Source: Gemmatimonadota bacterium (GTDB taxonomy: Bacteria > Gemmatimonadota > Gemmatimonadetes > Gemmatimonadales > GWC2-71-9). Taken from it: a DNA stretch of 42,932 bases. The position numbers and the translations under genes were made by a program. Below are positions 970 through 24,123 of the stretch, piece after piece. Numbering within the stretch: position 1 is the first letter of the stretch; each line of letters starts with the position of its first letter. The notes under the pieces were generated by a model that was given only the letters and a program-made list of their open reading frames with translations, made no database searches and was not told where the DNA came from. Location: contig JAYVJS010000551.1 in NCBI GenBank assembly GCA_043769075.1, forward strand, positions 1-42,932, written 5' to 3'.

Positions 970-2163
970 ATGCCCGACATTTGTCTCTACGCCCAGGTGC
1001 ACCAACCATTCCGGCTTCGGCGTTACCGGCTGTTCGACATCGGAACCGGGCTCGACTACTTCGACGAGGAGGCCAACGCCGGCATTCTCCGGCGGGTGGC
1101 AGAGAAGTGTTACCTCCCCGCCAACCGGCTCTTGGCCCAGCTGATTCGCCGCTCCGAGGGCCGCTTCAAGCTGGCCTTGAGCCTGAGCGGAACCTTGATC
1201 GAGCAGTTGACGCTCTATGCGCCCGATACGCTGGCCACTTTCCAGGATCTGGTTGATACCGGCGGGGTCGAAATCCTCGGCGAGACCTACTATCACAGCT
1301 TGGCCGGGCTCGCCGACCGAGAGGAGTTTGTCGAGCAAGTCGCCCGGCACCGGAAGTTGATCGAGCGAACCTTTGCCCGGCGGCCCTTCATCTTTCGGAA
1401 TACCGAGCTGATCTACTGGGATGACTTGGCTCCAACGGTCCTTGGGATGGGGTTCCGCGGCATGTTGGTCGAAGGAGCCGATCATGTCTTGGCCGGCCGG
1501 TCACCGAACCAGGTCTACGCCGCGGCGACGGCCCCCGCGCTCCGGCTCATGCCCCGCAACTACCAACTGAGCGACGACGTCGGCTTCCGGTTCTCCCAGC
1601 GCTCGTGGAGCGGGTGGCCACTGACCGCCCCGAAGTACGCCGACTGGCTGAGCCGGAACCAGGGGGAGTCGCTCAACCTTTTTCTCGATTACGAGACCTT
1701 CGGCGAGCATCAGTGGGCCGAGACCGGGATCTTCGACTTCTTGAGCCACTGGCCCGACGAGTGCTTCCAACGGGGCCTCCGTTTCGTGCAGCCGTCCGAG
1801 CTGGCCCGTCGCACACCCACCGGCCCACTGAGTTTCCCCCGCCCCACCTCGTGGGCCGATCAGGAGCGCGACACCTCGGCTTGGCTCGGCAACCATATCC
1901 AGGACTCGGCCCACGACCGTCTGTATCGCCTTGGCCGGGCCCTCCGCGAGCTCGGGGACGCGGCGTTGCTCGAACAGTGGCGGCGGTTGACCACCAGCGA
2001 CCATGTCTATTACATGTGCACCAAGTGGTTTGCCGACGGCGACGTCCACAAATACTTCAGCCCCTACGACTCGCCCTATGACGCCTTCGTCGCGTTCATG
2101 AACGTGCTGGAGGATCTCGAGCAGCGGGCGGCGGCCGACTCGTCTATGCTTGTCGGACGATGA
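970..2163 (+). CDS. Glycoside hydrolase family 57 protein (alpha-glucan acting)
   Basis: 397-aa ORF. The N-terminus ICLYAQVHQPFRLRRY...YFDEEANAGILRRVAEKCYLPAN and the DYETFGEH segment look like GH57. The ATG at 970 is packed against the GT4 stop, and the stop overlaps the next start (ATGA at 2160-2163). Confidence 0.85.
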   Translation: MPDICLYAQVHQPFRLRRYRLFDIGTGLDYFDEEANAGILRRVAEKCYLPANRLLAQLIRRSEGRFKLALSLSGTLIEQLTLYAPDTLATFQDLVDTGGVEILGETYYHSLAGLADREEFVEQVARHRKLIERTFARRPFIFRNTELIYWDDLAPTVLGMGFRGMLVEGADHVLAGRSPNQVYAAATAPALRLMPRNYQLSDDVGFRFSQRSWSGWPLTAPKYADWLSRNQGESLNLFLDYETFGEHQWAETGIFDFLSHWPDECFQRGLRFVQPSELARRTPTGPLSFPRPTSWADQERDTSAWLGNHIQDSAHDRLYRLGRALRELGDAALLEQWRRLTTSDHVYYMCTKWFADGDVHKYFSPYDSPYDAFVAFMNVLEDLEQRAAADSSMLVGR

Positions 2164-2723
2164 CCGCCGCAGCCGACATGTTCGAGGCGCTTTTGATGCC
2201 GTTGTTGGGGAGTGCCTACAGCACCGCCCTTCGGTTGACCCGAAATCCGGCCGACGCGGAAGACGTCGTGCAGGAGGCGGCCCTCCTGGCTTCCCGGGGC
2301 TTCCACTCGTTCCAAACCGGCACCAATTTCAAGGCATGGTTTTTCCGGATCCTCACTAACGCCTACTTCAGCAAGTATCGGCAGCAACGACGCCGGGGGC
2401 ATTCGGTGCCGTTGGAGGACACGCCAGAGCTTTATCTGTTTAGCCAAGCCGCGGCACTCGGATTGCATGGCCAATCAGCCGATCCCGCCGGCGACCTGGT
2501 CGGCAGACTCGACGCCGAGCAGGTCATCGGTGCGTTGGACAGCCTACCGGAGGAGTATCGGGTGGTGGCGACACTGTACTTCGTGAACGACCTCAGTTAC
2601 GAGGCTATCGCGAGTTCGCTCGAGATTCCGATCGGGACTGTGCGCTCTCGCCTTCACCGAGGCCGGCGGATGCTCCAGCGTGCCTTGTGGCGGCTGGCCC
2701 AAGACCACGGCATCAGCCAATGA
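2160..2723 (+). CDS. ECF-type RNA polymerase sigma-70 family factor
   Basis: 187 aa. Region 2 (DAEDVVQEAALLA...FKAWFFRILTNAYF) and region 4 HTH (LPEEYRVVATLYFVNDLSYEAIASSLEIPIGTVRSRLHRGRRML) are present, with no region 3. ATGA overlaps link it to GH57 upstream and the anti-sigma gene downstream. Confidence 0.9.
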   Translation: MTAAADMFEALLMPLLGSAYSTALRLTRNPADAEDVVQEAALLASRGFHSFQTGTNFKAWFFRILTNAYFSKYRQQRRRGHSVPLEDTPELYLFSQAAALGLHGQSADPAGDLVGRLDAEQVIGALDSLPEEYRVVATLYFVNDLSYEAIASSLEIPIGTVRSRLHRGRRMLQRALWRLAQDHGISQ

Positions 2724-2977
2724 CCGAACCGCATCGATTTACCTGCGACGACGTCTTCCGGCGACTCGACGATTATCTCGACCGGGAGCTGTCCGCGGCC
2801 GAGATGCAGTTGGTGGCCGAGCACCTCGACACCTGCGCCCAATGTGCGGCGGAGCATCGGTTCGAAGCCCGGGTCATCGACTCGATCAAGGCCAAGCTGA
2901 GCCAGATCAAGGCGCCTGACCTCCTCCTCAAGCGAGTGGCGAAGGCGCTCGAACAGGAGCGAAACAAGACCGGCTAG
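2720..2977 (+). CDS. Short cytoplasmic ZAS-type (RsrA-like) anti-sigma factor, no TM segment
   Basis: 85 aa counted from ATG 2720, which overlaps the sigma TGA at 2721-2723. H-x3-C-x2-C motif (EHLDTCAQC) plus an upstream Cys9. The C9/H35/C39/C42 spacing equals the C11/H37/C41/C44 spacing of Streptomyces RsrA as I remember it. The listed GTG at 2687 is a less likely start, because the paralog at 15211 begins MTxxHRxTC just like the ATG-2720 form. Confidence 0.8.
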   Translation: MTEPHRFTCDDVFRRLDDYLDRELSAAEMQLVAEHLDTCAQCAAEHRFEARVIDSIKAKLSQIKAPDLLLKRVAKALEQERNKTG

Positions 2978-3002
2978 GAACCGGCGGTCCCGTCCCAGCG
3001 TT
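2977..3002 (+). promoter_or_regulatory. Putative ECF-type promoter P1 (GGAAC-N17-CGTT) upstream of the GH63 gene
   Basis: GGAAC at 2977-2981, a 17-nt spacer and CGTT at 2999-3002. The motif is 40 nt upstream of GTG 3042, and its -35 overlaps the anti-sigma TAG stop. The same exact pattern recurs at 15137 and 18183. Confidence 0.5.
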
Positions 3003-3041: not shown

Positions 3042-5729
3042 GTGTCGCAAGCCCGACGTACCGCCGAATCTGATCGCCTTGCCGCCATCGAACACCACGT
3101 CCCGTGGCGCCGGTGGGGGCCGTATCTTTCGGAGCGCCAGTGGGGCACGGTCCGGGAGGACTATAGCGACAATGGCGCGGCCTGGGACTACTTCCCCCAC
3201 GATCATGCCCGCAGTCGCGTCTATCGGTGGGGCGAGGACGGCCTCGGCGGATATTCCGATCACCTCCAGCGCCTTTGCGTCGGCGTGGCTCTCTGGAATG
3301 GCCGCGACCCGATCCTAAAAGAGCGCCTGTTCGGGCTGACCAACGGCCAGGGGAATCATGGCGAAGACGTCAAGGAGTTGTACTACTACCTCGACGCCAC
3401 CCCGACCCATTCGTACCTCCGGATGCTCTACAAGTACCCCCAAGGCGAGTTTCCCTACCAGCAGTTGATCGGGGAGAACCAGCGGCGAGGCCCCAACGAC
3501 CCGGAATTCGAGCTCCTCGATACCGGACTGTTCGACCAGGACCGGTACTTCGACGTCTCAATAGAGTATGCCAAGGCCGGCCCCACCGACACCCTGCTCC
3601 GGGTGACGGTGGTCAATCGGGGCCCCGAGGCTGCCCCGATCCATGTCCTCCCCCAAGCCTGGTTTCGAAACACCTGGAGTTGGGGCCGGGAGCCCGGCCG
3701 CCCCGTCATGCGGGCCTCCTCGGCCGCCGCCGTGACGGCCGATCATCCGTCGTTAGGCACCACGCATTTGTACTTTGACGGCGGTCCTGAGCTGCTGTTT
3801 GCTGAGAACGAGACCAACACGGCGCTGCTCTACGGCACCCAGGGCCCCGGCCGCGCGGTCAAGGACGGGTTCCACGAGCGGGTGGTTCGAGGTCGGACCG
3901 ACGCAGTCAACGCCGATCGGATCGGGACAAAGGCCGCGGCCTGGTACCAGACGGTGATCGCGGCAGGCGGGACGGCGGTTTTTCAGGCCAGACTGTCCGC
4001 CGAGCCGATCGCGAAGCCGTTCGCCGGTTTCGACGGGATCTTCGAGGCCCGCCTTACCGAGGCCGACGAGTTCTATGCCGACATCCAGCGCGGGATGGAC
4101 GACCCCGATGCCCGGATGGTCCAACGGCAAGCATTCGCCGGGATGATTTGGAGCAAGCAGCTTTACTACTACGATGTCCCCGAGTGGCTCGAGGGCGATC
4201 CAGGCCAACCCACCCCGCCGACGGCCCGCCGGTCGGGCCGAAACCATGACTGGGAACACCTCAACAACGCCGACCTTCTCTCGATGCCCGACGCCTGGGA
4301 GTATCCCTGGTTTGCCGCGTGGGACCTCGCCTTCCACTGCATTCCGCTGGCGCTGATCGATCCTGAGTTTGCCAAGCACCAACTCGTCTTATTGACGCGC
4401 GAGTGGTACATGCACCCGAACGGCCAGCTCCCCGCGTATGAGTGGGCCTTTGGGGACGTCAACCCGCCGGTCCACGCGTGGGCCGCGTGGCGAGTATTCC
4501 AGCTCGACCGAAAGAAGACCGGCAAAGAGGACATCGCGTTCCTCGAGCGAGTGTTCCACAAGTTGATGCTCAACTTCACCTGGTGGGTGAATCGCAAGGA
4601 CGCCCAGGGCCGGAACGTGTTCCAAGGCGGATTCCTCGGCCTCGACAACATCGGAGTGTTCGACCGGGGCGCACCGCTGCCTGGGGGCGGGTTCTTGAAT
4701 CAGGCCGACGGCACCGCCTGGATGGCGATGTATTCGCTCAACCTGATGCGGATCGCCCTCGAATTGGCGATGCACAACCGGGTCTACGAGGACATTGCGA
4801 CCAAGTTCTTCGAGCACTTCCTCCATATCGCCGAGGCCATGACCAAGATCGGCGGCGACGCCGCGGGATTGTGGAACGAAGAAGACCAGTTCTACTACGA
4901 CGTGCTCAACACCGACGACGACCGTCAGATTCCGCTCAAGATTCGTTCGATGGTCGGGCTGATTCCGCTGTTCGCCGTCGAGACGATCGACCAGAGCATG
5001 CTCGATGCCCTCCCGGAGTTTGCCGGACGGCTCAAATGGTTCCTCGACAACCGGCCCAAACTGGCCGCTCTGGTGGCCAAGTGGGACGTACCCGGCCACG
5101 GCGAACGGCGCCTCCTATCGCTGGTGCCCGGCCGACGGATCGGCCCGATCCTCGAACGGCTCCTTGACGAAACCGAGTTCCTGTCGGACTACGGTGTCCG
5201 CGCGGTGTCCCAGTTTCACCGTGATCATCCCTATCAACTCGAGGTCGGCGGCCAGAGTCTCTCCGTTCGCTATCAGCCGGGAGAGTCCGACTCGGGGTTG
5301 TTCGGGGGAAACTCGAATTGGCGGGGCCCGATTTGGATGCCGGTGAACTACCTCTTGATCGAGTCGCTCCAGCGATTCCATTACTACTATCACGACCAGC
5401 TGATGGTGGAGTGCCCGAAGGGATCGGGCCGTCAGGTCACGATCGACCAGGCGGCCGCGGAGATCTCGCAACGGTTAACCCGGCTCTTTCTCAAAGACGG
5501 AGCCGGACGGCGCCCGGTCCTCGGGTACCATCCCAAGCTTCAGAACGATCCCCATTTCCGCGACCACGTCCTGTTCCACGAGTACTTCCATGGCGAGACC
5601 GGCCGAGGCGTCGGGGCCTCGCATCAGACCGGATGGACCGGCTTGGTCGCCAAACTGTTGATGCCCCGCCCGGTCCATCAGGCCCGGGGCACCGACGATT
5701 ACCATCACCACACCAAGGTGGCCCTATGA
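3042..5729 (+). CDS. GH63 / MGH1-like glucosidase (about 890 aa bacterial type)
   Basis: 895-aa ORF. The N-terminal WRRWGPYLSERQWGTVREDYSDNGAAWDYFPHDHARSRVYRWGEDGL and the later (alpha/alpha)6-type segments are typical of bacterial GH63 'glucosidase' proteins. GGGAG lies 7 nt upstream of GTG 3042. Confidence 0.85.
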   Translation: MSQARRTAESDRLAAIEHHVPWRRWGPYLSERQWGTVREDYSDNGAAWDYFPHDHARSRVYRWGEDGLGGYSDHLQRLCVGVALWNGRDPILKERLFGLTNGQGNHGEDVKELYYYLDATPTHSYLRMLYKYPQGEFPYQQLIGENQRRGPNDPEFELLDTGLFDQDRYFDVSIEYAKAGPTDTLLRVTVVNRGPEAAPIHVLPQAWFRNTWSWGREPGRPVMRASSAAAVTADHPSLGTTHLYFDGGPELLFAENETNTALLYGTQGPGRAVKDGFHERVVRGRTDAVNADRIGTKAAAWYQTVIAAGGTAVFQARLSAEPIAKPFAGFDGIFEARLTEADEFYADIQRGMDDPDARMVQRQAFAGMIWSKQLYYYDVPEWLEGDPGQPTPPTARRSGRNHDWEHLNNADLLSMPDAWEYPWFAAWDLAFHCIPLALIDPEFAKHQLVLLTREWYMHPNGQLPAYEWAFGDVNPPVHAWAAWRVFQLDRKKTGKEDIAFLERVFHKLMLNFTWWVNRKDAQGRNVFQGGFLGLDNIGVFDRGAPLPGGGFLNQADGTAWMAMYSLNLMRIALELAMHNRVYEDIATKFFEHFLHIAEAMTKIGGDAAGLWNEEDQFYYDVLNTDDDRQIPLKIRSMVGLIPLFAVETIDQSMLDALPEFAGRLKWFLDNRPKLAALVAKWDVPGHGERRLLSLVPGRRIGPILERLLDETEFLSDYGVRAVSQFHRDHPYQLEVGGQSLSVRYQPGESDSGLFGGNSNWRGPIWMPVNYLLIESLQRFHYYYHDQLMVECPKGSGRQVTIDQAAAEISQRLTRLFLKDGAGRRPVLGYHPKLQNDPHFRDHVLFHEYFHGETGRGVGASHQTGWTGLVAKLLMPRPVHQARGTDDYHHHTKVAL

Positions 5730-6583
5730 CCGCTGCAACCGCTCGGACGGCGAACTCACCTTTCATGGAACGACCGATGGCCAAGCTTCTTAGCGGCCAG
5801 AAGGTGCTCGTCACCGGTGCTAGTTCCGGGATCGGAAAATCGATTGCGATGGCCATGGCCTCGGCCGGAGCCGACGTCTGCGTCAACTACCCCGTGGAAG
5901 CCGAGATGGCCAAGGCTATCGAGGAAGTCGAAGACATCCGGGCCCACGGCGGCCGTGCCTGGGCCCACCAATGCGATGTGTCGAATGAAGCCGAGGTCAT
6001 CGCGATGTTCGACCGGATTCGGAAAGAGATGGGGACGGTGGACATCGTGGTGGCGAATGCCGGAATCCAGCGCGACGCCCGGTTTGAGGACATGACCCTG
6101 GACCAATGGAACCGGGTCATCGGCGTCAACTTGACCGGGCAATTTTTGTGCGCCCGCGAGGCCGTCAAGGAGTTCAAGCGGCGGGGATTTCACTCCGTGT
6201 CCCGGTCGTTGGGCAAAATCATTTGCATGAGTTCGGTTCACGAGGTCATTCCCTGGGCCGGCCACGTCAACTACGCCACGTCGAAGGGTGGCGTGATGTT
6301 GATGATGAAGAGCATTGCGCAAGAAGTGGCCCCCGCGGGGATTCGGGTCATGAGCATCGCGCCCGGGGCGATTCGGACCCCGATCAACCGCGACGCCTGG
6401 GAAACCCCGGAGGCCTATCAGAGTCTCCTCAAGCTGATTCCGGCCAAGCGGATCGGCGAGCCTGAGGATATTGCTCGGACGGCGGTGTGGCTGGCGTCGG
6501 ACGAAGCCGACTACATCACTGGAACGACGACGTTCGTGGACGGCGGGATGACGCTTTATCCCGGGTTCGAAGCCGGCGGCTGA
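5726..6583 (+). CDS. Glucose 1-dehydrogenase-like short-chain dehydrogenase (SDR)
   Basis: TGASSGIGKS Rossmann motif. MSSVHEVIPWAGHVNYATSKGG...PGAIRTPIN and the C-terminus DGGMTLYPGFEAGG closely resemble Bacillus glucose 1-dehydrogenase as I remember it. ATG 5726 overlaps the GH63 TGA (ATGA). An alternative start at 5777 (MAKLLSGQKVLVTG) fits homolog N-termini better. Confidence 0.8.
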   Translation: MTAATARTANSPFMERPMAKLLSGQKVLVTGASSGIGKSIAMAMASAGADVCVNYPVEAEMAKAIEEVEDIRAHGGRAWAHQCDVSNEAEVIAMFDRIRKEMGTVDIVVANAGIQRDARFEDMTLDQWNRVIGVNLTGQFLCAREAVKEFKRRGFHSVSRSLGKIICMSSVHEVIPWAGHVNYATSKGGVMLMMKSIAQEVAPAGIRVMSIAPGAIRTPINRDAWETPEAYQSLLKLIPAKRIGEPEDIARTAVWLASDEADYITGTTTFVDGGMTLYPGFEAGG

Positions 6584-6587: not shown

Positions 6588-7052
6588 CTAGCGCGGTTTG
6601 GTTCGTGTCGCCATCCGGTGGATTGCCTCAACTGAGCGAGCGATACGCCGCGCTCGGGTTTCCGGCGCCTTGGCCCCCTCGATCGACTCGACATGTTCAC
6701 GGCGGTGGGTGTAGCTGAGCTCTCCCCATCGCTCCCGAGCCGGCGGCATCGCCTTCAGGGCCTTGGCGAAATCGGCCGGCGGCTTGACCACCCGTTCCTC
6801 AGTATCGAGTTCGAGTCGGACCTCGATCGTTTCGCCGCCCTCTAAACCCGCCGCTTCGCGGTTGCTCTTCCGGAGGGGAACGCACGGCGGACCACCCATG
6901 GCCGCGATGGTACTCCGATAGGTGTGACCGTTCAGGGTCACTTTGACGGGAGCCCGGACCTTGCCGAACACGGCCTTGGGATCGAAGGTCAGGGGCACAA
7001 AGCACATCGAACCGTCGCGGACGATCGTGGTTCTGAAGGTTTTCGAAGCCAT
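6588..7052 (-). CDS. DUF1905 / YdeI-like protein
   Basis: 154 aa from ATG 7052 (MASKTFRTTIVRDGSMCFVPL...VKVTLNGHTYRSTIAAMGG...). It has a DUF1905 beta-barrel-like N-terminus plus a YdeI/OmpD-associated-like C-terminus. It converges on the SDR gene with a 4-nt gap. Confidence 0.7.
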   Translation of the reverse strand: MASKTFRTTIVRDGSMCFVPLTFDPKAVFGKVRAPVKVTLNGHTYRSTIAAMGGPPCVPLRKSNREAAGLEGGETIEVRLELDTEERVVKPPADFAKALKAMPPARERWGELSYTHRREHVESIEGAKAPETRARRIARSVEAIHRMATRTKPR

Positions 7053-15210: not shown

Positions 15211-15480
15211 ATGACCACGGGCCACCGAGTGACCTGCGAAGACATGATTCGCGAGCTGCCCGACTTCCTCGATCGTGAATTGCCCACGATCCGGCTGGCC
15301 GAGTTGCAGGAGCACCTTGACGAATGCGCCCGTTGCCTTCGAAAGCACCAGTTCGAGGCCTCGGTCTTGGACCAGATTCGGAGCCGCCTGACCAACATCG
15401 GACTCCCCCCGTCACTCCAAACCCGGATCCTCGAGTTGCTCAGCACGGATCGAGCTGGAGGGACGCCATGGAGATACTGA
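15211..15480 (+). CDS. Second short ZAS-type (RsrA-like) anti-sigma paralog, no adjacent sigma gene
   Basis: 89 aa from ATG 15211, with AGAGGA just upstream. MTTGHRVTCEDMIRELPDFLDRELP...EHLDECARC has C9/H35/C39/C42 at the same positions as the 2720 gene. My hand alignment gives about 35 identities in the first 77 positions. Confidence 0.75.
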   Translation: MTTGHRVTCEDMIRELPDFLDRELPTIRLAELQEHLDECARCLRKHQFEASVLDQIRSRLTNIGLPPSLQTRILELLSTDRAGGTPWRY

Positions 15481-17441
15481 CGGCCGATCGCTCCGCTGAG
15501 TGGCTGGAGGCCGATGGGCTCGGGGCCTATGCCAGCGGCACCGTGGCCGGGCCCCGGTCGCGGCGTTACCACGCCTTGCTGATGACAGCCACGACACCTC
15601 CGACCGGACGGCAGGCCCTGGTGGCGGGGATCGATGCCTGGGTCGAGTCCGCAAACGATCGCGAAGACCTCACCGTCCAGCGGTATCGCCCGGACTTCGA
15701 CAGCCGGTTGCCGGACCACGTCACCCGTTTTTCCAACGACCCGTGGCCGACTTGGAACTACCGGCTCCTCGACGAAACCGAGATCGAGCACGAGATCTTT
15801 GTTCCCAAAGATCGATCCATGGTGGTGCTCCGGTGGCGATTGGTCCGGCCCGTTCCGGGAAAGCGGCTGATGGTCCGACCCCTGCTGACCGGGCGAGACA
15901 TCCATGCCCTCCATCATGAGAACAGCGAACTGCGGTTCGACGCCGAAGTCGGGGCTGACCGGGTTCGTTGGCAGGCGTATAGTGCCCTGCCAGGCGTCAT
16001 CGCCGGTCACAATGGGGCATATCACCACGGCCCGACCTGGTACCGCGGGTTCCAACTCGATGAAGAGCGGGCCCGGGGGTTCGACTATTTGGAAGACGCG
16101 GCCTCGCCCGGGGTGTTGAGCTGGGATCTTTCCGCCGGCGAGGCGGTGCTGATCCTGGCCACCGACTCGGCCGACAACGCTGATGACTTGGTGCTGCCGC
16201 CGCTCAAGGCCGCGGACCGACACCGGAAGCGGGAGCGGCTCCGACGGGGCCGGTTGACGAGTCCATTGGCCAAGGCGGCCGACAGCTACATCGTGAGGCG
16301 CGGTTCGGGCAAGACCATTATCGCAGGGTATCCCTGGTTCACCGACTGGGGACGGGACACCTTCATTGCCGTCCGCGGACTCGGGCTCGCTACCGGCCGC
16401 CTGGACGATGCCAAGGCCATCATCTTGGCCTGGGCGGATACCGTTTCCGAAGGCATGCTCCCCAATCGGTTCGTCGACCAGGGCGACGCGCCGGAATACA
16501 ACTCGGTCGATGCCTCGCTCTGGTATGTGATGGTCGTGGGTGAGTTGATCGCGGCGTTCGCCGAAACCGGGAAACGCCTAACGGCGACGGACCGGCGGCG
16601 GATGGGCGATGCGGCCCAGGCCATCCTGGAGGGGTACGCCAAAGGAACTCGCTACGGCATCCACGCCGACACCGACGGCCTCCTCGCCGCCGGGGTCCCC
16701 GGTGTTCAACTCACCTGGATGGACGCGAAGCTCGGCGACTGGGTGGTGACGCCCCGGATCGGGAAACCGGTTGAGATCCAGGCGCTCTGGCTGGCGGCGC
16801 TTGCGGCCGGCAGTGCTCGTGATGACCGGTGGCGGGCACTCTCGGATCGGGTTCGGGCCACGTTCGCCAAGCGGTTTTGGAATCCGGATCGGGCCTGTTT
16901 GTACGACGTGGTCGATTGCGACGGCGTGGCTGGGCGGGTCGACGCCTCGGTTCGGCCGAACCAGATCTTTGCCGTCGGTGGCCTGCCGCAGTCGTTGCTG
17001 AGCGGCGCGATGGCGACGGCGGTGGTCGAAACGGTCGAACGGGAGCTTCTGACGCCACTCGGCCTGAGGACCCTCGCGCCCACCGATCCGGCGTACGTTC
17101 CCCGATACCAAGGCGGCCCTCATGAGCGCGATGGCGCCTACCATCAAGGCACCGTCTGGCCCTGGCTGCTCGGACCCTTCGTCGAAGCCTGGCTCCGGGT
17201 TCGGGGCAACACCGCCACGACCCGGCGCGAAGGGCAGACCCGGTTCCTGGCGCCGCTGATGGCGCACCTGAACGAAGCGGGCCTCGGACACATGTCGGAG
17301 ATTGCCGATGCCGAGGCGCCCCACGTTCCCCGCGGGTGCCCCTTTCAAGCCTGGTCGGTCGGGGAGGCGATTCGGATCCACCACCTGCTCGCCGAGCCCG
17401 TGGCGCCGGCACCGAAGCGACGACGACTACCGGCCCCGTGA
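15468..17441 (+). CDS. Glycogen debranching enzyme (GDE N-terminal domain + amylo-alpha-1,6-glucosidase domain)
   Basis: 657 aa from ATG 15468, a 13-nt overlap with the ZAS paralog. EWLEADGLGAYASGTVAGPRSRRYHALL, GYPWFTDWGRDTFIA, NSVDASLWY, LTWMDAK, VEIQALW, YHQGTVWPWL and QAWSVGE are typical of the bacterial/archaeal GDE family. Confidence 0.85.
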   Translation: MEILTADRSAEWLEADGLGAYASGTVAGPRSRRYHALLMTATTPPTGRQALVAGIDAWVESANDREDLTVQRYRPDFDSRLPDHVTRFSNDPWPTWNYRLLDETEIEHEIFVPKDRSMVVLRWRLVRPVPGKRLMVRPLLTGRDIHALHHENSELRFDAEVGADRVRWQAYSALPGVIAGHNGAYHHGPTWYRGFQLDEERARGFDYLEDAASPGVLSWDLSAGEAVLILATDSADNADDLVLPPLKAADRHRKRERLRRGRLTSPLAKAADSYIVRRGSGKTIIAGYPWFTDWGRDTFIAVRGLGLATGRLDDAKAIILAWADTVSEGMLPNRFVDQGDAPEYNSVDASLWYVMVVGELIAAFAETGKRLTATDRRRMGDAAQAILEGYAKGTRYGIHADTDGLLAAGVPGVQLTWMDAKLGDWVVTPRIGKPVEIQALWLAALAAGSARDDRWRALSDRVRATFAKRFWNPDRACLYDVVDCDGVAGRVDASVRPNQIFAVGGLPQSLLSGAMATAVVETVERELLTPLGLRTLAPTDPAYVPRYQGGPHERDGAYHQGTVWPWLLGPFVEAWLRVRGNTATTRREGQTRFLAPLMAHLNEAGLGHMSEIADAEAPHVPRGCPFQAWSVGEAIRIHHLLAEPVAPAPKRRRLPAP

Positions 17442-18196
17442 AGCCGAATTGGGTCGAGTACGGGCTCGAGACGTTCGGGCTCGGGCTCTTCATGGTTTCG
17501 GCCTCGGCGTTCGGGGTCCTGCTGTTCCACCCGGACTCGCAGGTGGTGACGGTGCTGCCGAACCCGATGGTCCGGAGCGCTCTGATGGGCCTCGCGATGG
17601 GATCGACCGCGCTACTAAACACCTACTCGCCCTGGGGCCGCCGCTCCGGGGCCCACCTCAACCCCGCCGTCACTCTCACGTTCTACTCGTTAGGAAAGGT
17701 GTCGGCGGTGGACCTAGCCGGCTATGTCGCCGCGCAGTTCGTTGGCGGGCTGCTCGGGATGATGGTGGCCGCCGCGATGTTGTCGCCGTGGATTGGGCAT
17801 CCGGCGGTCAACTTCGTGGCCACCGTGCCGGGGCCGGCCGGCCTTGGAGCGGCCTGGCTCGGCGAGGCGGTCATCACCGTTGTGTTGATGACCGTGGTGC
17901 TTACCTGTGCCGCTAACCCCAAGACGGCACCGTTTACCGGATTCGCCGCGGCCGGCCTGGTGGCCGTCTACATCACGTTCGAGGCGCCGCTCTCGGGCAT
18001 GAGCATGAATCCGGCCCGCACGCTGGCCTCCGCCGTTCCAGCGATGTCGTGGCACGGGCTTTGGATCTACTTCACCGCCCCACCCCTCGGCATGTTGGCC
18101 GCGGCCGCGTTCCGCCGCCGTCACCACGCCCGCCACTGCGCCAAACTCCACCACGATGCTCGCTTTCGCTGCATTTTCTGCGGGAACTCGCCCTAG
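17438..18196 (+). CDS. MIP/aquaporin family channel with Cys/His-rich C-terminal tail
   Basis: 252 aa from GTG 17438, which overlaps the GDE TGA (GTGA). It has two NPA boxes (HLNPAVT, SMNPART) and six hydrophobic segments. The tail reads RRRHHARHCAKLHHDARFRCIFCGNSP. Confidence 0.9.
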   Translation: MKPNWVEYGLETFGLGLFMVSASAFGVLLFHPDSQVVTVLPNPMVRSALMGLAMGSTALLNTYSPWGRRSGAHLNPAVTLTFYSLGKVSAVDLAGYVAAQFVGGLLGMMVAAAMLSPWIGHPAVNFVATVPGPAGLGAAWLGEAVITVVLMTVVLTCAANPKTAPFTGFAAAGLVAVYITFEAPLSGMSMNPARTLASAVPAMSWHGLWIYFTAPPLGMLAAAAFRRRHHARHCAKLHHDARFRCIFCGNSP

Positions 18197-18208
18197 CACC
18201 TCTGCGTT
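18183..18208 (+). promoter_or_regulatory. Putative ECF-type promoter P3 (GGAAC-N17-CGTT) upstream of the DM13 gene
   Basis: GGAAC at 18183-18187, inside the last aquaporin codons. A 17-nt spacer leads to CGTT at 18205-18208, 86 nt upstream of ATG 18294. Confidence 0.45.
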
Positions 18209-18293
18209 GATCCGGTCATGCGAGACGGACAGGCACCCCGCTCGCGATGACGAATGCCATCAACCGGTGCACCCAACCACAGAGGAGTCGCTC

Positions 18294-18665
18294 ATGCGTA
18301 CCTGGCTCATCACGTCGTTCGCCGCCCTGGCGGTACTCGCCACCGCAGCCTTCCGGCCCGCCCCGACCACCAAGGTCAGCAAGCCGTTTGCCGGCGCCAA
18401 GGTCAACGGCGGCAACGTCACCATGAACAACGACGGCGGCAAGATCACCTTGACGCTCTCGCCCGAGGTCAAGGATCCGAAGACCCCCGACGCCCACTGG
18501 CAAGTCGTCGATGCCAAGGGCCGGGTCTATCTCCTCGACAAGATGACGATCAAGGACGACAAGGTGAATCAGTCGATCACCTTGCCCGACTACATCAAGG
18601 ACGTCCAGAAGGTCGTGATCTTCTGCGCCTGGGCCGTGGCCAACCTCGGCGAAGCCTCGTTCTAA
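18294..18665 (+). CDS. Secreted DM13-domain-like protein
   Basis: 123 aa from ATG 18294, with AGAGGAG 7 nt upstream. Signal peptide MRTWLITSFAALAVLATAAF. The body, ending VVIFCAWAVANLGEASF, resembles bacterial DM13 (electron-transfer) domain proteins. Confidence 0.6.
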   Translation: MRTWLITSFAALAVLATAAFRPAPTTKVSKPFAGAKVNGGNVTMNNDGGKITLTLSPEVKDPKTPDAHWQVVDAKGRVYLLDKMTIKDDKVNQSITLPDYIKDVQKVVIFCAWAVANLGEASF

Positions 18666-18805: not shown

Positions 18806-19666
18806 ATGACCATCAGGACCATGCTGGCGAGCGCGTTGGTGATCGCCCTTCCGGCCGTCGCGCTCGAAGCTCAAGTCACCGCCAAGAAGCAACTCAACAT
18901 GGACGGCGCCAAGCAGATCGCGGACGCCGTCGTCGCGGAAGCCAAGCGCCTCAATACCACCGGCGTCGTCGCGGTCGTCGACGACGGCGGCAACCTGATG
19001 TACCTCGAACGAGTCGACGGCTCGTTCGCCGCCGGGGCCTTGATTTCCTACGGGAAGGCCCGAACCGCCGCCCTCTTCATGCGGCCGACCTCGGTGTTCG
19101 AGAATCTGATCAAGAGCGGCCGGACCCCGATGATCGCGCTCAATGACTTCACGCCGCTCCAAGGTGGCATTCCGGTCGAAGTCGATGGCCACATTGTCGG
19201 GGCTGTCGGAGTCAGCGGAGCCGCGAGCGCCGCCCAGGACGAGGAGCTCGCGATGGTCGGCGCTAAAGCGCTGGCTGACATGAAGCAGGCCCTGGCCCCG
19301 GTCAGCGTTTTCCCCAAGATGGAGGTCGACGCCGGGTTCGCGAAGGGCGGGGTCCTCATCGGCGACCTGCCTGATCGCGGCTATCAAGTTCACACCAGTC
19401 GGCGGAACGAGCCCGGGATGGTCGAAGTCCACACCCTCGACACTGACGTGTTCCAGGTGCTCTCCGGTTCGGCAACCCTGGTCACTGGCGGCACCATGGT
19501 GGGCGGCAAAGAGACCGGACCGAACGAATGGCGCGGCACCGAGATCCAGGGCGGAGAGAGCCGGAAGATCGCCAAAGGCGACGTGGTCGTCATCCCGGCC
19601 GGAACACCCCACTGGTTCAAGGCGATCGACGGACCGGTCACCTACTTCGCCGTCAAGGCCCGGTAG
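18806..19666 (+). CDS. Secreted GlcG/HbpS-like (DUF336) domain fused to a cupin domain
   Basis: 286 aa from ATG 18806, with AGGAGA upstream. Signal peptide MTIRTMLASALVIALPAVALEAQ. The DUF336 region reads LNMDGAKQIADAVVAEAKRLN...VAVVDDGGNLMYLERVDG...GGIPVEVDGHIVGAVGVSGA. The C-terminal cupin-like strands read GDVVVIPAGTPHWF. Confidence 0.75.
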   Translation: MTIRTMLASALVIALPAVALEAQVTAKKQLNMDGAKQIADAVVAEAKRLNTTGVVAVVDDGGNLMYLERVDGSFAAGALISYGKARTAALFMRPTSVFENLIKSGRTPMIALNDFTPLQGGIPVEVDGHIVGAVGVSGAASAAQDEELAMVGAKALADMKQALAPVSVFPKMEVDAGFAKGGVLIGDLPDRGYQVHTSRRNEPGMVEVHTLDTDVFQVLSGSATLVTGGTMVGGKETGPNEWRGTEIQGGESRKIAKGDVVVIPAGTPHWFKAIDGPVTYFAVKAR

Positions 19667-19670: not shown

Positions 19671-21326
19671 ATGCGGCGCCCGACCTTGATCTCACTCGTG
19701 CTCACGGCCCTCGGCGCGTCGGCCGCCTCGGCCCAGGTTACCGCCGATGCCCCAGCCGGCCGACCCCAGGCCATCGTCGACTTGATGACGACCGACGGCG
19801 TCCGCTCGGTCAACGGAGTGTGGAAATACCGTGACGCCCAAATCATCGAGGTCGACCATCGGAGCCCCGGGCCCGACCTCCGGCCTTCCGGCCCCCCCAA
19901 CCGAACCCATGACATTGTTCTGAAGGCCGGCGTCGCCGGGTTCGACGACACCGACTGGGAGACCGTTGACGGCCCCGACCTGACCAAACGGCGAACCAAC
20001 GGCCGGCTGGCTTTCGGCTGGTACCGGCTCAACCTGACGATCCCCGAGCAGGTCGGATCGTTCTCGACTCGCGGCTCGACGGTGGTCTTCGAGATCGTGG
20101 TCGATGACTATTCCGAGATCTGGGTCGACGGGAAGCTCACGCCGGTCCTCGGGCAGACCGGCGGCCAGCTGATCAAAGGCTGGAACGCGCCCAATCGCGT
20201 GGTGATCGGACGACACGTCGAACCGGGCCAGCGAATCCAGCTCGCCGTGTTCGGGATCAACGGGCCGCTCTCCGACCCGCCGATCAACTTCGTCTGGGTT
20301 CGTTCCGCCACGCTCGACTTTTATCAGGAGCCTAGCGGCGGGGTCGTGGCGACGGCCGCCACGATCGTTCGCCATGATCCCGCACTCGACCGGATCGTCC
20401 CGAGCGGAGCGGCCCTCGAGAAACTCGCCGGGGGCTTTTCATTCCTCGAAGGTCCGGTTTGGGTTCCCGAAGGCGGATTCCTGCTCTTCAGCGATCCAAA
20501 CACCAACACCATCTACCGGTGGACACCGGATGGGCAGGTCTCGGTGTGGCGGACCAAAAGCGGCTTTGCCGGCCCTAACATCGGCGACTACAAGCAACCG
20601 GGCTCCAACGGCCTCGCGCTCGACGCGATGGGACGAGTCACCATCGACCAACACGGCAACCGTCGGGTAATTCGGGTGGAACGCAACGGCGTCGTGACGG
20701 TCTTGGCGGACGGGTATCAAGGGAAGCGGCTCAACAGTCCCAACGATCTGGTCTACAAGTCGGACGGGTCGCTCTACTTCACCGACCCACCGTTCGGGTT
20801 GCCAAAGGTCTTCAGCGATCCGGCCAAGGAAACACCCTTCTCGGGTGTCTACCGGTGGAAGGACGGTGAAGTCACCCTGCTGACGACCGATTTCACCGGC
20901 CCTAACGGAATCGCGTTCTCCCCGGACGAGAAGTACCTCTACGTCGACAACTGGGACCCCGCGAAAAAGGTGATCATGCGCTACCCGGTCAAAGCCGACG
21001 GGACCCTCGAGAAGGGCACCGTATTCTTCGACATCACCACCTCGGTTCCCGGCGACGACGCCTGGGATGGCCTCAAGGTCGATACCAACGGGAACGTCTA
21101 CGCGGCCGGCCCCGAGGGCGTTTACGTCCTTGACCCCGCCGGGAAGCACCTCGGCACCATCGTGCTGCCCGAGCACGTGGCCAACTTCGCTTGGGGCGAC
21201 GATGATTTCCGGACCCTCTACCTCACCGCCTCGACCGGATTGTACCGGATTCGGCTGGCCGCCCAGGGCACCGGCGCTTTCAGCCGCCTCGCGGCCCGGG
21301 AACCCACGGCCACCTCGAGGCATTGA
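19671..21326 (+). CDS. Secreted SMP-30/gluconolactonase/LRE-family beta-propeller with an N-terminal extension of about 230 aa
   Basis: 551 aa with signal peptide MRRPTLISLVLTALGASAASAQ. The C-terminal half (FLEGPVWVPEGGFLLFSDPNTNTIYRW...NGLALD...PNDLVYKSDGSLYFTDP...PNGIAFSPDEKYLYV...GLKVDTNGNVY...NFAWGDDDFRTLYLTA) is the gluconolactonase pattern. I did not recognise the family of the N-terminal beta-rich domain. Confidence 0.8.
   Translation: MRRPTLISLVLTALGASAASAQVTADAPAGRPQAIVDLMTTDGVRSVNGVWKYRDAQIIEVDHRSPGPDLRPSGPPNRTHDIVLKAGVAGFDDTDWETVDGPDLTKRRTNGRLAFGWYRLNLTIPEQVGSFSTRGSTVVFEIVVDDYSEIWVDGKLTPVLGQTGGQLIKGWNAPNRVVIGRHVEPGQRIQLAVFGINGPLSDPPINFVWVRSATLDFYQEPSGGVVATAATIVRHDPALDRIVPSGAALEKLAGGFSFLEGPVWVPEGGFLLFSDPNTNTIYRWTPDGQVSVWRTKSGFAGPNIGDYKQPGSNGLALDAMGRVTIDQHGNRRVIRVERNGVVTVLADGYQGKRLNSPNDLVYKSDGSLYFTDPPFGLPKVFSDPAKETPFSGVYRWKDGEVTLLTTDFTGPNGIAFSPDEKYLYVDNWDPAKKVIMRYPVKADGTLEKGTVFFDITTSVPGDDAWDGLKVDTNGNVYAAGPEGVYVLDPAGKHLGTIVLPEHVANFAWGDDDFRTLYLTASTGLYRIRLAAQGTGAFSRLAAREPTATSRH
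21299..21324 (+). promoter_or_regulatory. One-mismatch copy of the ECF-type motif (GGAAC-N17-CATT), weak candidate P4
   Basis: GGAAC at 21299-21303, a 17-nt spacer and CATT at 21321-21324, overlapping the lactonase stop. It shares the cgGGAAC flank with P2 and P3, and lies 9 nt upstream of ATG 21333. Confidence 0.25.
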
Positions 21327-21332: not shown

Positions 21333-21530
21333 ATGCAAACCACATCTGCCGGCGAATTCATCCTGATCGGATCGGCGACCGGGGGCGGCACGGTCTTCAT
21401 CTGCGAATCGGCCCCCGATCGAACCACCTGGACCGCCTACGATGTCGGGCCGGGTGGTGCCCGGACCAACCCTCGGGTGGTGGTCGCCAATTCCTCCTCG
21501 AATTGGCGCGGTGTGCCGGAGCCGGTATGA
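21333..21530 (+). CDS. Small hypothetical ORF (65 aa) filling the lactonase-GMC gap
   Basis: ATG 21333 lies 7 nt after the lactonase stop. Its TGA overlaps the GMC ATG (ATGA at 21527-21530). Third codon positions are mostly G/C by eye, as in the neighbouring genes. I recognised no family. Confidence 0.4.
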   Translation: MQTTSAGEFILIGSATGGGTVFICESAPDRTTWTAYDVGPGGARTNPRVVVANSSSNWRGVPEPV

Positions 21531-23095
21531 GCCAGCACTACGACGTCATCATCATCGGATCGGGTGCGGGGGGCGGCACCCTGTTCCACCGCCTGGCCGC
21601 GACAGGCAAACGGATTCTGCTCCTCGAGCGCGGCGACTACGTTCCCCGCGAAAAGGATAACTGGGACCCCAAGGCCGTCAACGTGGAGGCGAAGTACAAC
21701 GCCAAGGAAGTCTGGCACGACCGGGACGGCAAGCCGCTCCATCCCCACACCAACTACTACGTCGGCGGCAACACCAAGTTCTACGGCGCCGCCCTGTTTC
21801 GGCTCCGGCGGGAAGACTTTGGCACCCTGACCCATCACGGAGGCGTCTCGCCCGCGTGGCCGGTTTCGTACGCCGAACTCGAACCGTACTACACCCGGGC
21901 CGAGCAGCTGTATGAGGTCCACGGCCAGCGGGGGTCCGACCCGACTGAACCGCCGACGTCGGCCCCGTACCCGTTTCCACGCGTCAGCCACGAGCCGGTG
22001 ATTCAAGCCCTTCACGACGACTTCACCGAGTTGGGGTTGAAGCCGTTTTCGGTCCCCCTTGGCGTCAGGCTCAACGAACGGAATCGCCGGCAGAGCGCCT
22101 GTATACGCTGCGGCACCTGCGACGGATTTCCCTGCTTGGTCGGGGCCAAATCGGACGCCCAGGCGATCTGTATCGACCCGGCGCTCGCTAAGTACCCCAA
22201 TGCCACACTGATGACCGGGGCGAAGGTGGCCCGGCTGACCACCGACGCCGGGGGACAGCGGGTGGACGGGGTCCACGTCGAGCGCGGGGGCCACACCGAG
22301 GTCTACACCGGGGACATCGTGGTCGTCTCGGCCGGGGCCATCAACTCGGCGGCGCTCCTGCTTCGGTCGGCCAACGACAAGCACCGCAATGGTCTCGGCA
22401 ACGGATCCGATATGGTCGGACGCCACTACATGGGCCATCTCAACTCGGTCCTGATGGCGATCTCCAAATGCCCGAACCCGACGGTGTTCCAAAAGACCCT
22501 CGGGGTAAACGACTTCTACCTGGGGTCGCCGGAATGGCAGTTCCCGATGGGGCACATTTCGTTCGTCGGCAAGCTCGACGGCATTACGCTCGGTGCCGGA
22601 GCCCCAGCGATCGCGCCCGGATTCACCCTCGACCTGATGGCCAAGCATTCACTCGACTTCTGGCTCACCTCCGAGGACCTGCCCGATCCCGACAACCGGG
22701 TCACCCTCGACCAGAACGGCGGCATCGTACTCTCGTACCGGCCGAACAATGAGGAGGGCCACAAGCGGCTGATCAAGAAGCTTGAGAGCTTGATGCAACA
22801 ACGGACCCGGTGCGCCATTCACGGCGCGGGTTGCCACGTGGGTCTGTTCGGACGAAGCCTGTTTGTCGGGCAGCGAATCCCGTTGGCGGGCGTGGCGCAC
22901 CAGAACGGAACCATCCGGTTCGGCACCGATCCGAAGACGTCGGTCCTCGATCGGAACTGCAAGGCCCACGAGGTCGACAATCTGTACGTCGTCGACGGAA
23001 GTTTCTTTCCGTCAAGCGGTGCCGTCAATCCGGCACTGACCATCATCGCCAATGCCCTTCGAGTGGGCGACCACTTGGCCGAGCGGCTGGCGTGA
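21527..23095 (+). CDS. GMC-family FAD oxidoreductase
   Basis: 522 aa from ATG 21527. It has the MSQHYDVIIIGSGAGGGTL FAD fold, YYVGGNTKFYGAA, VVVSAGAINSAALLLRS, and C-terminal NLYVVDGSFFPSSGAVNPALTIIANALR. Confidence 0.9.
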   Translation: MSQHYDVIIIGSGAGGGTLFHRLAATGKRILLLERGDYVPREKDNWDPKAVNVEAKYNAKEVWHDRDGKPLHPHTNYYVGGNTKFYGAALFRLRREDFGTLTHHGGVSPAWPVSYAELEPYYTRAEQLYEVHGQRGSDPTEPPTSAPYPFPRVSHEPVIQALHDDFTELGLKPFSVPLGVRLNERNRRQSACIRCGTCDGFPCLVGAKSDAQAICIDPALAKYPNATLMTGAKVARLTTDAGGQRVDGVHVERGGHTEVYTGDIVVVSAGAINSAALLLRSANDKHRNGLGNGSDMVGRHYMGHLNSVLMAISKCPNPTVFQKTLGVNDFYLGSPEWQFPMGHISFVGKLDGITLGAGAPAIAPGFTLDLMAKHSLDFWLTSEDLPDPDNRVTLDQNGGIVLSYRPNNEEGHKRLIKKLESLMQQRTRCAIHGAGCHVGLFGRSLFVGQRIPLAGVAHQNGTIRFGTDPKTSVLDRNCKAHEVDNLYVVDGSFFPSSGAVNPALTIIANALRVGDHLAERLA

Positions 23096-24123
23096 GAGCG
23101 CGGACCTGGCTCCGGTGGTCGGCCGTCGCGACGCTGTGCCTCGCGGGATCCGGGATCGCGAAGGCGCAGAGCCGGGGCAACCAGGCAGTCGAGGCGGAAG
23201 CGGTCACCTCGATCGGGATCACGGTCGGCGACCTCGATCGATCGGTGGAGTTCTTCACCCAGGTCCTCAGCTTCGAGAAGCTGGGCGAGACCGAAGTGGA
23301 CGGCACCGCCTATGAACACCTGACCGGGGTCTTCGGAGTCCGAATCCGGATTGCCCGGCTCCGACTCGGTGAGGAGCAGATCGAGCTGACCCAATACTTG
23401 GCCCCTGAAGGACGACCGATCCCGGCCGACTCGCGGAGCAACGATCGCTGGTTCCAGCACGTCGCCATCGTGGTGCGGGACATGGACCAGGCATACCGGG
23501 TGCTTCGCCAGCACAAGATTCGGTACGGGTCGACCGGACCCCAACTGCTCCCAAACGCCAATCCGAATGCGGGCGGGATCCGGGCCTTCTATTTCAAAGA
23601 CCCCGACGGGCACAACCTCGAAGTGATTTGGTTTCCCAAGGGCAAGGGCGACCCTCGATGGCAACGGCCCACCGAGCGGCTGTTTCTCGGCATTGATCAC
23701 ACCGCCATCGTCGTCCGGGACACCGAGGCGAGCCTCAGATTTTACCGGGATCTGTTGGGCTTCCGCGTCGCCGGCAACAGTCGCAACTACGGCACCGAAC
23801 AGGAGCACCTCAACAATGTCGAGGGTGCCAGTCTCCTGATCACGGGCCTCAGAGCCCGCACCGGCCCCGGCGTCGAGTTCCTCCAGTACCTGACGCCCGG
23901 CGACGGCCGCCCCTACCCCGCCGACGCCAAACCAAACGATCTCCTCCATTGGCAGACCCAGGTCCGAGTCGCCGCCGGCGAGGCCGTGAACCTTCTGGCC
24001 ACCTCGGGCGTTACCACCGTGTCACGCGGCGTCGTGGTACTGCCCGACAGCTTGCTCGGATACCGCCGAGGCGTGATGGTGCGTGATCCCGATGGTCACG
24101 CCGTGCTAATCACCGAACCCTAG
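23092..24123 (+). CDS. Secreted tandem VOC (glyoxalase/bleomycin-resistance/dioxygenase) domain protein
   Basis: 343 aa from GTG 23092, which overlaps the GMC TGA (GTGA). Signal-like RARTWLRWSAVATLCLAGSGIAKAQ. It has two VOC modules (IGITVGDLDRSVEFFTQVLSF...FKDPDGHNLEV and IDHTAIVVRDTEASLRFYRDLLGF...VRDPDGHAVLI). Confidence 0.8.
   Translation: MRARTWLRWSAVATLCLAGSGIAKAQSRGNQAVEAEAVTSIGITVGDLDRSVEFFTQVLSFEKLGETEVDGTAYEHLTGVFGVRIRIARLRLGEEQIELTQYLAPEGRPIPADSRSNDRWFQHVAIVVRDMDQAYRVLRQHKIRYGSTGPQLLPNANPNAGGIRAFYFKDPDGHNLEVIWFPKGKGDPRWQRPTERLFLGIDHTAIVVRDTEASLRFYRDLLGFRVAGNSRNYGTEQEHLNNVEGASLLITGLRARTGPGVEFLQYLTPGDGRPYPADAKPNDLLHWQTQVRVAAGEAVNLLATSGVTTVSRGVVVLPDSLLGYRRGVMVRDPDGHAVLITEP

Follow-up and report, generated by a model that had tools for sequence, protein, structure and literature searches.

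A 42,932-nt stretch of DNA from an uncultured soil Gemmatimonadales bacterium (contig JAYVJS010000551.1, GCA_043769075.1), hereafter called the window, encodes near its left edge a SigH-like sigma factor of the extracytoplasmic function (ECF) type together with a soluble zinc-binding anti-sigma factor (ZAS1) that resembles RsrA. Four copies of a two-box element were found on the + strand of the window, each in front of a gene unit: a glycoside hydrolase family 63 (GH63)-like gene with a short-chain dehydrogenase (SDR) gene; a second anti-sigma gene (ZAS2) with a glycogen debranching enzyme (GDE) and a MIP-family channel; a 123-aa secreted protein with a GlcG/cupin protein and an SMP-30/gluconolactonase-like (SGL) protein; and a small open reading frame (ORF) with a GMC-family dehydrogenase and a VOC-family protein. 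The consensus of the element is gGGAACC-N14-gGC(G/A)TTg, equal to a hexamer-N17-GTT layout, and the sites are almost certainly real, conserved promoter-like elements. Sequence comparison suggests that the SigH-type sigma family probably reads them as one regulon.

The strict pattern GGAAC-N17-CGTT is present in three exact copies (2977-3002, 15137-15162, and 18183-18208), all on the + strand, and zero exact copies were found on the - strand of the window. This agrees with a first-pass annotation of the same DNA, which had reported three copies on the + strand only, none elsewhere, and each 40-90 nt upstream of a + strand start codon; the distances measured from the motif end are 39, 48, and 85 nt. 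The spacings N15, N16, and N19 gave 0 matches in the window, and N18 gave one - strand match within the GH63 coding sequence. The expected number of exact copies was 0.54, and three copies were reached in 1 of 100 dinucleotide shuffles, numbers that could be taken to favor chance, or composition in G+C-rich DNA, as the source of the three matches.

The comparison covered 80 genome loci around relatives of the sigma gene, plus another 14 centered on close homologs of the sigma factor, ZAS1, and SGL; the sigma homologs carry Gemmatimonadales names in public records. In 290 kb of Gemmatimonadota loci, the strict pattern was found 27 times at N17 versus 0-5 times at each of 14 other spacings (N10 to N24), and this excess at N17 was not seen in 1.1 Mb from other phyla. 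A scoring matrix built from non-window sites only and applied with a threshold of ≥17 bits gave six matches in the window, all on the + strand and all at N17, versus 0.08 in shuffles (maximum 1 in 300), and zero matches at six neighboring spacings. In 127 kb of held-out, cluster-carrying loci the matrix matched 14 times at N17 and 0 times at six other spacings. Bases outside the search pattern are kept as well: GGAAC is followed by C in 20 of 22 sites, and CGTT is preceded by G in 21 of 22. A matrix match at 29037 (17.1 bits) is probably a product of chance; it begins within a HEAT-repeat gene, 3 nt past the ATG (29034), and was rejected as a promoter. The stretch 29034-29064 falls in the signal-peptide-like hydrophobic N-terminal region of the HEAT-repeat protein. 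For the junction sites, chance as an explanation is effectively refuted, because the excess is confined to one spacing, the held-out matrix test was positive, and the sites are position-conserved in many genomes. An Rfam scan of the whole window returned nothing, and neither sigma-70-type promoters nor intrinsic terminators were detected at the junctions beyond chance.

Of the four + strand sites, P1 (2977..3002, aGGAACC-N14-aGCGTTa, 21.8 bits) lies before the GH63-SDR pair with a predicted start near 3011. P2 (15137..15162, gGGAACT-N14-gGCGTTg, 20.0 bits, predicted start near 15171) precedes the ZAS2-GDE-MIP genes, and P3 (18183..18208, gGGAACT-N14-tGCGTTg, 17.6 bits, predicted start near 18217) overlies the last MIP codons ahead of the gene for the 123-aa protein. 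The -35 box of P3 is made by Gly-Asn codons of the MIP tail. The predicted 5' untranslated region of the 123-aa gene (18217-18293) contains two hairpins, GCGAG...CTCGC and GATGAC...GTCATC, which are kept in L088, L090, and L091; covariation in these hairpins is almost absent, and they gave no Rfam match.

P4 (21299..21324, gGGAACC-N14-gGCATTg, 17.1 bits) precedes the small ORF and the GMC gene. It is the one-mismatch copy (GGAAC-N17-CATT) that had been pointed out before, and it was recovered here by a matrix trained on other genomes. Its GCATTG box is also present at the junction before the small ORF and GMC gene in L088, L090, and L091, and the -10 box of more distant lineages usually reads GCATT, also in front of their ZAS-linked sigma genes. 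The last T of P4 is separated from the A of the small-ORF ATG by 9 nt in three genomes and by 10 nt in the fourth, and a Shine-Dalgarno sequence was not found before the small ORF. Based on the SigH geometry (T-9; PMC6411747) and the 9-nt distance to the ATG, a leaderless transcript is predicted. The predicted start is exactly the small-ORF ATG, and the geometry is kept in four genomes. A weak candidate, P5 (23987..24012, + strand, gTGAACC-N14-gGCGTTa, 17.4 bits), lies within the 3' end of the VOC gene, 125 nt before a GNAT acetyltransferase gene. It is also found in L088 and L091, yet within conserved VOC coding sequence. Its status as a promoter is doubtful, as GTGAAC replaces GGGAAC and thus departs at a base essential in M. 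tuberculosis SigH (PMC6411747).

The junction sites were compared in about 15 related Gemmatimonadales loci. The site before GH63 was found in eight genomes (the window, L081, L083, L086, L091, L001, L002, and L092), that before ZAS2 or GDE in six (the window, L081, L086, L091, L002, and L092), that before the 123-aa gene in nine (the window, L088, L090, L091, L092, L001, L002, L003, and L010), and that before the small ORF and GMC gene in four (the window, L088, L090, and L091). Identity was 0.7-0.9 in the boxes versus 0.3-0.4 in the spacer and flanks, where the sites of the relatives had been picked by score, so that the box figures are inflated, with position and spacing tests unaffected. 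A short conserved two-box element between genes might, in theory, serve as the operator of a conventional repressor or activator, or be part of an intergenic repeat, instead of acting as a promoter. Yet the boxes are neither palindromic nor direct repeats, their orientation is always toward the downstream gene, and the start codons are 8-125 nt away. They also keep one rigid spacing, as in ECF promoters (PMC6411747), and equal the SigH/SigE consensus (PMC10012870). Since flanks and spacers are unrelated, the sites are not repeat copies. We regard an operator or repeat as very unlikely and interpret the elements as promoters.

The sigma gene itself is tied to the cluster and to the motif in the relatives. 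In L001, the gene order is GT4 (glycosyltransferase family 4), GH57, sigma, ZAS, a divergent pentapeptide-repeat gene, GH63, SDR, GDE, MIP, GlcG/cupin, and SGL. Similar arrangements that also include GMC and VOC are found in loci whose sigma is as little as 53% identical, and synteny of sigma-ZAS with the cluster was also seen in one Vulcanimicrobiota metagenome-assembled genome (MAG). The window differs from its relatives by unrelated - strand genes inserted between SDR and the pentapeptide gene. The motif is located directly upstream of the sigma gene in L001, L002, L005, and L012 and upstream of GT4 in the GT4-GH57-sigma-ZAS operon in L083, L084, and L086. This position upstream of the sigma gene or its operon supports autoregulation. 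By analogy with these loci, the autoregulatory promoter would be expected some 0.4 kb outside the left edge of the window; L093, the furthest-reaching other assembly, adds 142 nt on that side. A conserved GGAATCATATTGG... string of L025 and L083 was considered and found to be absent from the window. Other genes preceded by the motif in relatives encode DoxX_2 (three genomes), DinB_2, a pyridine-nucleotide disulfide oxidoreductase (Pyr_redox_2), and an FMN reductase (FMN_red). DoxX_2, DinB_2, disulfide oxidoreductases, and FMN reductases are typical companions of SigR/SigH thiol or oxidative stress regulons. L081 and L086 come from a single MAG (GCA_031400975.1), in which the sigma-ZAS1 locus occurs twice, with sigma factors 88% and 82% identical to that of the window, and the ZAS2-GDE locus twice as well; this reflects either a genuine duplication or a bin that mixes two strains.

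The sigma factor (2160..2723, + strand, 187 aa) contains only Sigma70_r2 (residues 16-79) and Sigma70_r4_2 (residues 120-172), as expected for an ECF (group 4) sigma factor, and scored 85.5 bits against the sigma70-ECF model TIGR02937 (cut-off 42.9). Among PDB entries, M. tuberculosis SigH matched best (5zx2, E 1.3e-38). The best NCBIfam model was TIGR02947 SigH_actino with 151 bits, below the cut-off of 251.55, and the SigE model reached 92 bits, lower than that of SigH. Because SigH is the best model yet stays below the equivalog cut-off, the protein is placed by sequence in a sister clade of SigH/SigR, not as an equivalog. In an alignment with M. tuberculosis SigH, with an inferred numbering offset, the -35 contacts Y166, T179, S182, R183, H185, R186, and R188 and the -10 contacts F72, T76, N77, and W81 are identical, and K167 is replaced by E, R73 by Q, and M181 by R. 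The M. tuberculosis SigH promoter consists of GGAAYA and GTT with a rigid, optimal 17-bp spacer (PMC6411747), and C. glutamicum SigH/SigE promoters read GGAACN-N16-CGTT (PMC10012870). The C. glutamicum SigE protein has Arg at the position equivalent to M181 and accepts only GGAAC (PMC10012870), so the change of M181 to Arg fits the invariant GGAACC found here. The geometry of the window element (GGAACC-N16-CGTT) is that of SigH/SigE promoters, and the sigma factor of the window would recognize it.

Several points weigh against this assignment, besides the SigH_actino score below its cut-off. P4 has an A at the position where M. tuberculosis SigH strictly needs G-11 (PMC6411747). In L081, the motif was not found upstream of the operon of the 88%-identical sigma, and in L025, which has an 81%-identical sigma, no site was found within 18 kb. 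Thioredoxin-type genes are absent from the window, and none were seen in the DNA of the relatives compared. Furthermore, GGAAC/CGTT promoters are common to several ECF groups, for example EcfG with GGAAC-N16/17-CGTT (PMC6599016), and for this reason the assignment to the window sigma rests on linkage and autoregulation.

A specific competitor is found in the relatives, which encode a second SigH-like sigma factor of 203 aa and 50% identity; its gene follows DoxX_2/LtrA, and a divergent copy of the motif precedes them. At the SigH DNA-contact positions the residues of this paralog are those of the window sigma, which likewise counts against a unique assignment. DoxX_2 and/or LtrA and the second sigma gene, with no adjacent anti-sigma gene, are located back-to-back with the GT4 promoter in L083 (5437-7463), L086 (5654-6885), and L091 (15850-18374); the equivalent region of this genome would, by comparison, lie to the left of the window. 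The sites could then be ECF promoters read by this paralog or by another sigma factor of the GGAAC/CGTT type, with the sigma factor at 2160 as a target or sharer and ZAS2 as the partner of the orphan sigma. L091 fits such a view: it has ZAS2, the paralog, and all sites, yet there the motif precedes GT4-GH57, which runs straight into GH63 with no sigma-ZAS1 pair between. On the other hand, L001 and L002 have no paralog within 20 kb and still carry the motif upstream of the ZAS-linked sigma gene, GH63, GDE, and the 123-aa gene, and the tie of sigma-ZAS to the cluster holds down to 53% identity. A division of GCGTT and GCATT boxes between the two sigma paralogs was also considered and rejected, as GCATT is found in loci with no second sigma within about 20 kb. 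Reading by another sigma factor altogether is therefore judged unlikely, while the 203-aa paralog may share or own some of the sites and ZAS2 may be its partner. The proposal of the first-pass annotation, ECF-type promoters forming one regulon with the adjacent sigma/ZAS pair, is thus supported by spacing, position, and the SigH-like sigma factor, but the sigma assignment is not unique.

Both anti-sigma proteins, ZAS1 (2720..2977, + strand, 85 aa, zf-HC2) and the orphan paralog ZAS2 (15211..15480, + strand, 89 aa, zf-HC2), have RsrA as top model and top PDB match and possess neither a membrane domain nor a C-terminal domain; their size and their ligands (HxxxCxxC plus an N-terminal Cys) are those of the RsrA type, whose members are soluble and have about 80-105 aa. 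ZAS1 residues C9, H35, C39, and C42 align with RsrA C11, H37, C41, and C44, and the four ligands are invariant in four ZAS1 proteins, the single ZAS of L092, four ZAS2 proteins, and RsrA, whose sequence as used here agrees with the 5frf alignment. A redox-sensitivity signature has been described, from actinomycete proteins only, as an acidic pair before the first Cys of CxxC and a Leu plus a charged residue after the second (PMC3177212). ZAS2 with HLDECARCLRK fits this signature (PMC3177212). Two observations count against the overall reading: the RsrA model TIGR03988 reached 47.9 bits for ZAS1 and 49.7 bits for ZAS2, below the cut-off of 62.5, and ZAS1 with HLDTCAQCAAE is devoid of the acidic and Leu residues of the signature (PMC3177212). 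For the thiol/redox gating of the regulon proposed earlier, the four conserved RsrA ligands are in favor, but the signature is found in ZAS2 only. The DoxX_2, DinB_2, disulfide oxidoreductase, and FMN reductase genes behind the motif in relatives lend the idea some indirect support. Judging from the residues, redox gating is plausible and better founded for ZAS2 than for ZAS1; that thiol or redox stress is the signal is close to an even proposition, somewhat on the lower side.

The sigma gene is the third of an operon on the + strand. It starts with a GT4/GlgA-like glycosyltransferase gene (1..968, Pfam Glycos_transf_1 and Glyco_transf_4) whose 5' end is cut by the window edge; full-length orthologs (405 aa) also matched Glyco_transf_5. 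The GH57 glycoside hydrolase gene (970..2163, PF03065, 233.7 bits) overlaps the sigma ATG with its stop codon. Start/stop overlaps of the ATGA or GTGA type are present at GH57/sigma, sigma/ZAS1, GH63/SDR (ATGA), GDE/MIP (GTGA), small ORF/GMC, and GMC/VOC, in line with the coupling of sigma and ZAS1 to the GT4-GH57 pair noted before.

The genes behind the four sites are likewise on the + strand. The P1 unit consists of the GH63/MGH1-like glycoside hydrolase (3042..5729, 895 aa; MGH1-like_GH 80 bits, plus the GH63 C-terminal domain) and an SDR oxidoreductase (5726..6583) assigned by NCBIfam to the glucose 1-dehydrogenase subfamily (NF005559, 225 bits versus a cut-off of 215). In the P2 unit, ZAS2 overlaps by 13 nt with the gene for a protein of the glycogen debranching enzyme type (15468..17441; GDE_N and GDE_C, 368.9 and 173.5 bits), which is followed by an aquaporin-like MIP-family channel (17438..18196, 252 aa; Pfam MIP, and TIGR00861 with 118 bits, below cut-off). 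The Cys/His-rich C-terminal tail of the channel (18110-18196) ends with ...HHARHCAKLHHDARFRCIFCGNSP and could bind metal or sense the redox state. The P3 unit encodes the 123-aa secreted protein (18294..18665), which has no Pfam match, an HbpS/GlcG-like plus cupin protein with a signal peptide (18806..19666; HbpS-like 100 bits), and the SMP-30/gluconolactonase/LRE-like protein (19671..21326; SGL 141 bits) with a signal peptide and a 250-aa unassigned N-terminal domain, whose homologs bear the JGI name gluconolactonase. The P4 unit encodes the 65-aa small ORF (21333..21530), a candidate small subunit with no Pfam match that overlaps the GMC gene by ATGA, the catalytic subunit of a GMC-family FAD sugar dehydrogenase (21527..23095; GMC_oxred_N and GMC_oxred_C), and a tandem VOC/glyoxalase-fold protein with a signal peptide (23092..24123; Pfam Glyoxalase in two stretches; GTGA overlap with GMC). 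A small GNAT acetyltransferase (24138..24470, + strand, Acetyltransf_1) is a possible last member, and its ortholog was found after VOC in L091. Five gene models, including the 65-aa and 123-aa ORFs, match identical independent public calls, and the 65-aa ORF is also a called gene in L088, L089, and L091. Family matches agree with the identities given to these genes in the first-pass annotation, with the sole exception of the DM13 label for the 123-aa protein: DM13 (PF10517) was unmatched in the Pfam search, and even the L091 and L092 orthologs reached only about 14 bits (E about 0.07-0.09), below the cut-off of 25.

A GlgA/Rv3032-like GT4 and a GH57 look like types for making or branching alpha-glucan, not only for its breakdown. 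The GH63-like protein lacks a close characterized relative: searched against the PDB, the single sequence found nothing, and with a profile the one match was a short one to yeast glucosidase I (4j5t, E 1e-5). The best PDB matches of the GMC protein are the alpha subunit of the B. cepacia FAD glucose dehydrogenase (6a2u, 1.4e-35) and the large subunit of fructose dehydrogenase. The GMC protein contains a Cys cluster, CIRCGTCDGFPC, at about residues 200-215 (22100-22140), a putative Fe-S site. The 65-aa ORF has, in relatives, a degenerate Tat-like N terminus (SRSDFILIG). The Cys cluster and the Tat-like N terminus recall the alpha and gamma subunits of FAD glucose dehydrogenase, and by this analogy the coupled ORF may act as a small subunit of the GMC protein.

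The earlier proposal was that the regulon mobilizes stored glucan and oxidizes the released glucose; the four units are present at the sites, but the GT4 and GH57 look like genes for synthesis or branching. This specific metabolic logic, glucan mobilization linked to glucose oxidation, is rather doubtful, and a route from glycogen through glucose to gluconate that yields reducing power is one of several possible readings. A fair, though speculative, summary of the output would be stress-induced glucan or glucoside turnover with sugar oxidation, partly outside the cytoplasm.

Relative to L086, unrelated genes occupy 6588-14345 between SDR and the pentapeptide-repeat gene. They encode a DUF1905/OmdA protein, a ferritin/Dps-like protein, an SDR, a fasciclin protein, a MerR plus B12-binding (CarH-like) regulator with CIA30, a formamidase-like protein, and a penicillin amidase, and the promoter motif is absent from all of them. 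The pentapeptide-repeat gene (14345-15130, - strand) lacks the motif. It adjoins the sigma-ZAS pair in L001-L005, L007, L010, and L013, and only in L013 does it share the strand of that pair. A Ser/Thr kinase with PD40/Tricorn-like beta-propeller repeats (24392-27016, - strand) is a conserved neighbor of the cluster; a PD40-type kinase is located after VOC in L088 and near LtrA/sigma in L083. Some ECF sigma factors are controlled by Ser/Thr kinases of such a type.

From these data a working model can be drawn. The four sites would be promoters for RNA polymerase carrying the SigH-type sigma factor (2160-2723), possibly also the 50%-identical paralog. In the resting state, the sigma factor would be held by ZAS1, ZAS2, or both. 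Oxidation or alkylation of the conserved Cys ligands would free it, as in RsrA/RshA, and transcription by the free sigma would begin some 9 nt past the GTT or ATT of the element. The units so driven would be GH63-SDR, ZAS2-GDE-MIP, the 123-aa ORF with GlcG/cupin and SGL, and the leaderless small ORF-GMC-VOC unit, perhaps with GNAT; this output step, in which the sites would drive the four units, is borne out by the comparative evidence. Positive feedback would arise if, as in relatives, a promoter upstream of GT4 drives the GT4-GH57-sigma-ZAS1 operon, and ZAS2 as a regulon target would provide negative feedback. The physiological output would, speculatively, be a stress-triggered turnover of alpha-glucan or glucosides with partly periplasmic sugar oxidation.

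The closest known family by sequence, for the sigma factor and both ZAS proteins, is SigH/SigR-RshA/RsrA (ECF12). Shared with it are a soluble, co-transcribed anti-sigma factor with a C-H-C-C ligand set, an anti-sigma gene among the targets, apparent autoregulation in relatives, and a GGAA(C/T)N-N17-GTT promoter with rigid spacing (PMC6411747). Of the ECF12 members, 89% are reported from Actinobacteria and most others from Bacteroidetes and Proteobacteria (PMC7406223), whereas this locus comes from another phylum, outside the reported ECF12 taxa. It further differs by scores below the equivalog cut-offs, by Arg in place of M181, and by a ZAS1 devoid of the redox-determinant residues (PMC3177212). 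The sigma-adjoining targets are glucan, glycoside, channel, and sugar-oxidation genes and not thioredoxin, mycothiol, or Clp genes, and there is an extra orphan ZAS as well as, in relatives, an extra sigma paralog. SigE of Corynebacterium and Mycobacterium (ECF14) uses the same promoter string, for example GGAACC-N16-CGTT at cg1277, and there, too, Arg at the position reading -31/-30 goes with a strict GGAAC (PMC10012870). SigH and SigE, two related sigma factors sharing promoters, are a precedent for the question of the paralog; SigE differs in its anti-sigma factors (CseE/RseA) and its cell-surface stress signal.

The nearest functional precedent for an ECF sigma factor acting on carbohydrate-reserve genes under stress is the control of trehalose and GlgX genes by EcfG (ECF15), which has a GGAAC-N16/17-CGTT motif, a regulon holding glucan and trehalose genes, and an EcfG-dependent GlgX cluster in Sphingomonas melonis (PMC6599016). 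Unlike the system described here, EcfG belongs to an unrelated sigma clade and is controlled by NepR/PhyR partner switching with no ZAS; NepR/PhyR genes are absent here. In cyanobacteria, the group-2 sigma factor SigE activates glycogen catabolism and the oxidative pentose phosphate pathway and is an alternative sigma factor that joins reserve-catabolism genes into a regulon, but it is not an ECF sigma, has no ZAS, and uses another promoter type. As in B. cepacia FAD glucose dehydrogenase and Gluconobacter fructose dehydrogenase, whose catalytic subunit works with a small "hitchhiker" subunit, the GMC catalytic subunit has a coupled small ORF immediately upstream; in contrast to those enzymes, this ORF is only 65 aa long with no family match, and no cytochrome c subunit gene is adjacent.

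In the literature searched, no ECF/ZAS regulon of this composition was found. As a regulatory principle the system is ordinary; its novelty lies in the wiring, in the duplication of the sigma/anti-sigma pair, and in the leaderless unit. In its full form, the hypothesis is that an RsrA-like thiol switch directly gates glucan-reserve turnover by the GlgA-like, GH57, GDE, and GH63-like enzymes, NAD(P)- and periplasmic FAD-linked sugar oxidation, and a MIP channel, with a duplicated sigma/anti-sigma system, feedback by an inducible ZAS2 that bears the redox signature, and the leaderless P4 unit as a distinct output, and we put it forward as a tentative possibility. If true, it would be a thiol-gated stress-to-metabolism regulon with no described counterpart. 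Gemmatimonadota are abundant in soil and have very few cultured strains, and to our knowledge almost no regulation has been experimentally defined in the phylum. The consensus gGGAACC-N14-gGC(G/A)TTg is usable at once for regulon annotation in MAGs of the order. The locus offers a concrete, testable tie between a stress-sensing sigma/anti-sigma module and glucan or sugar-oxidation metabolism and would be an example of a SigH/RsrA-type module re-wired outside the Actinobacteria.

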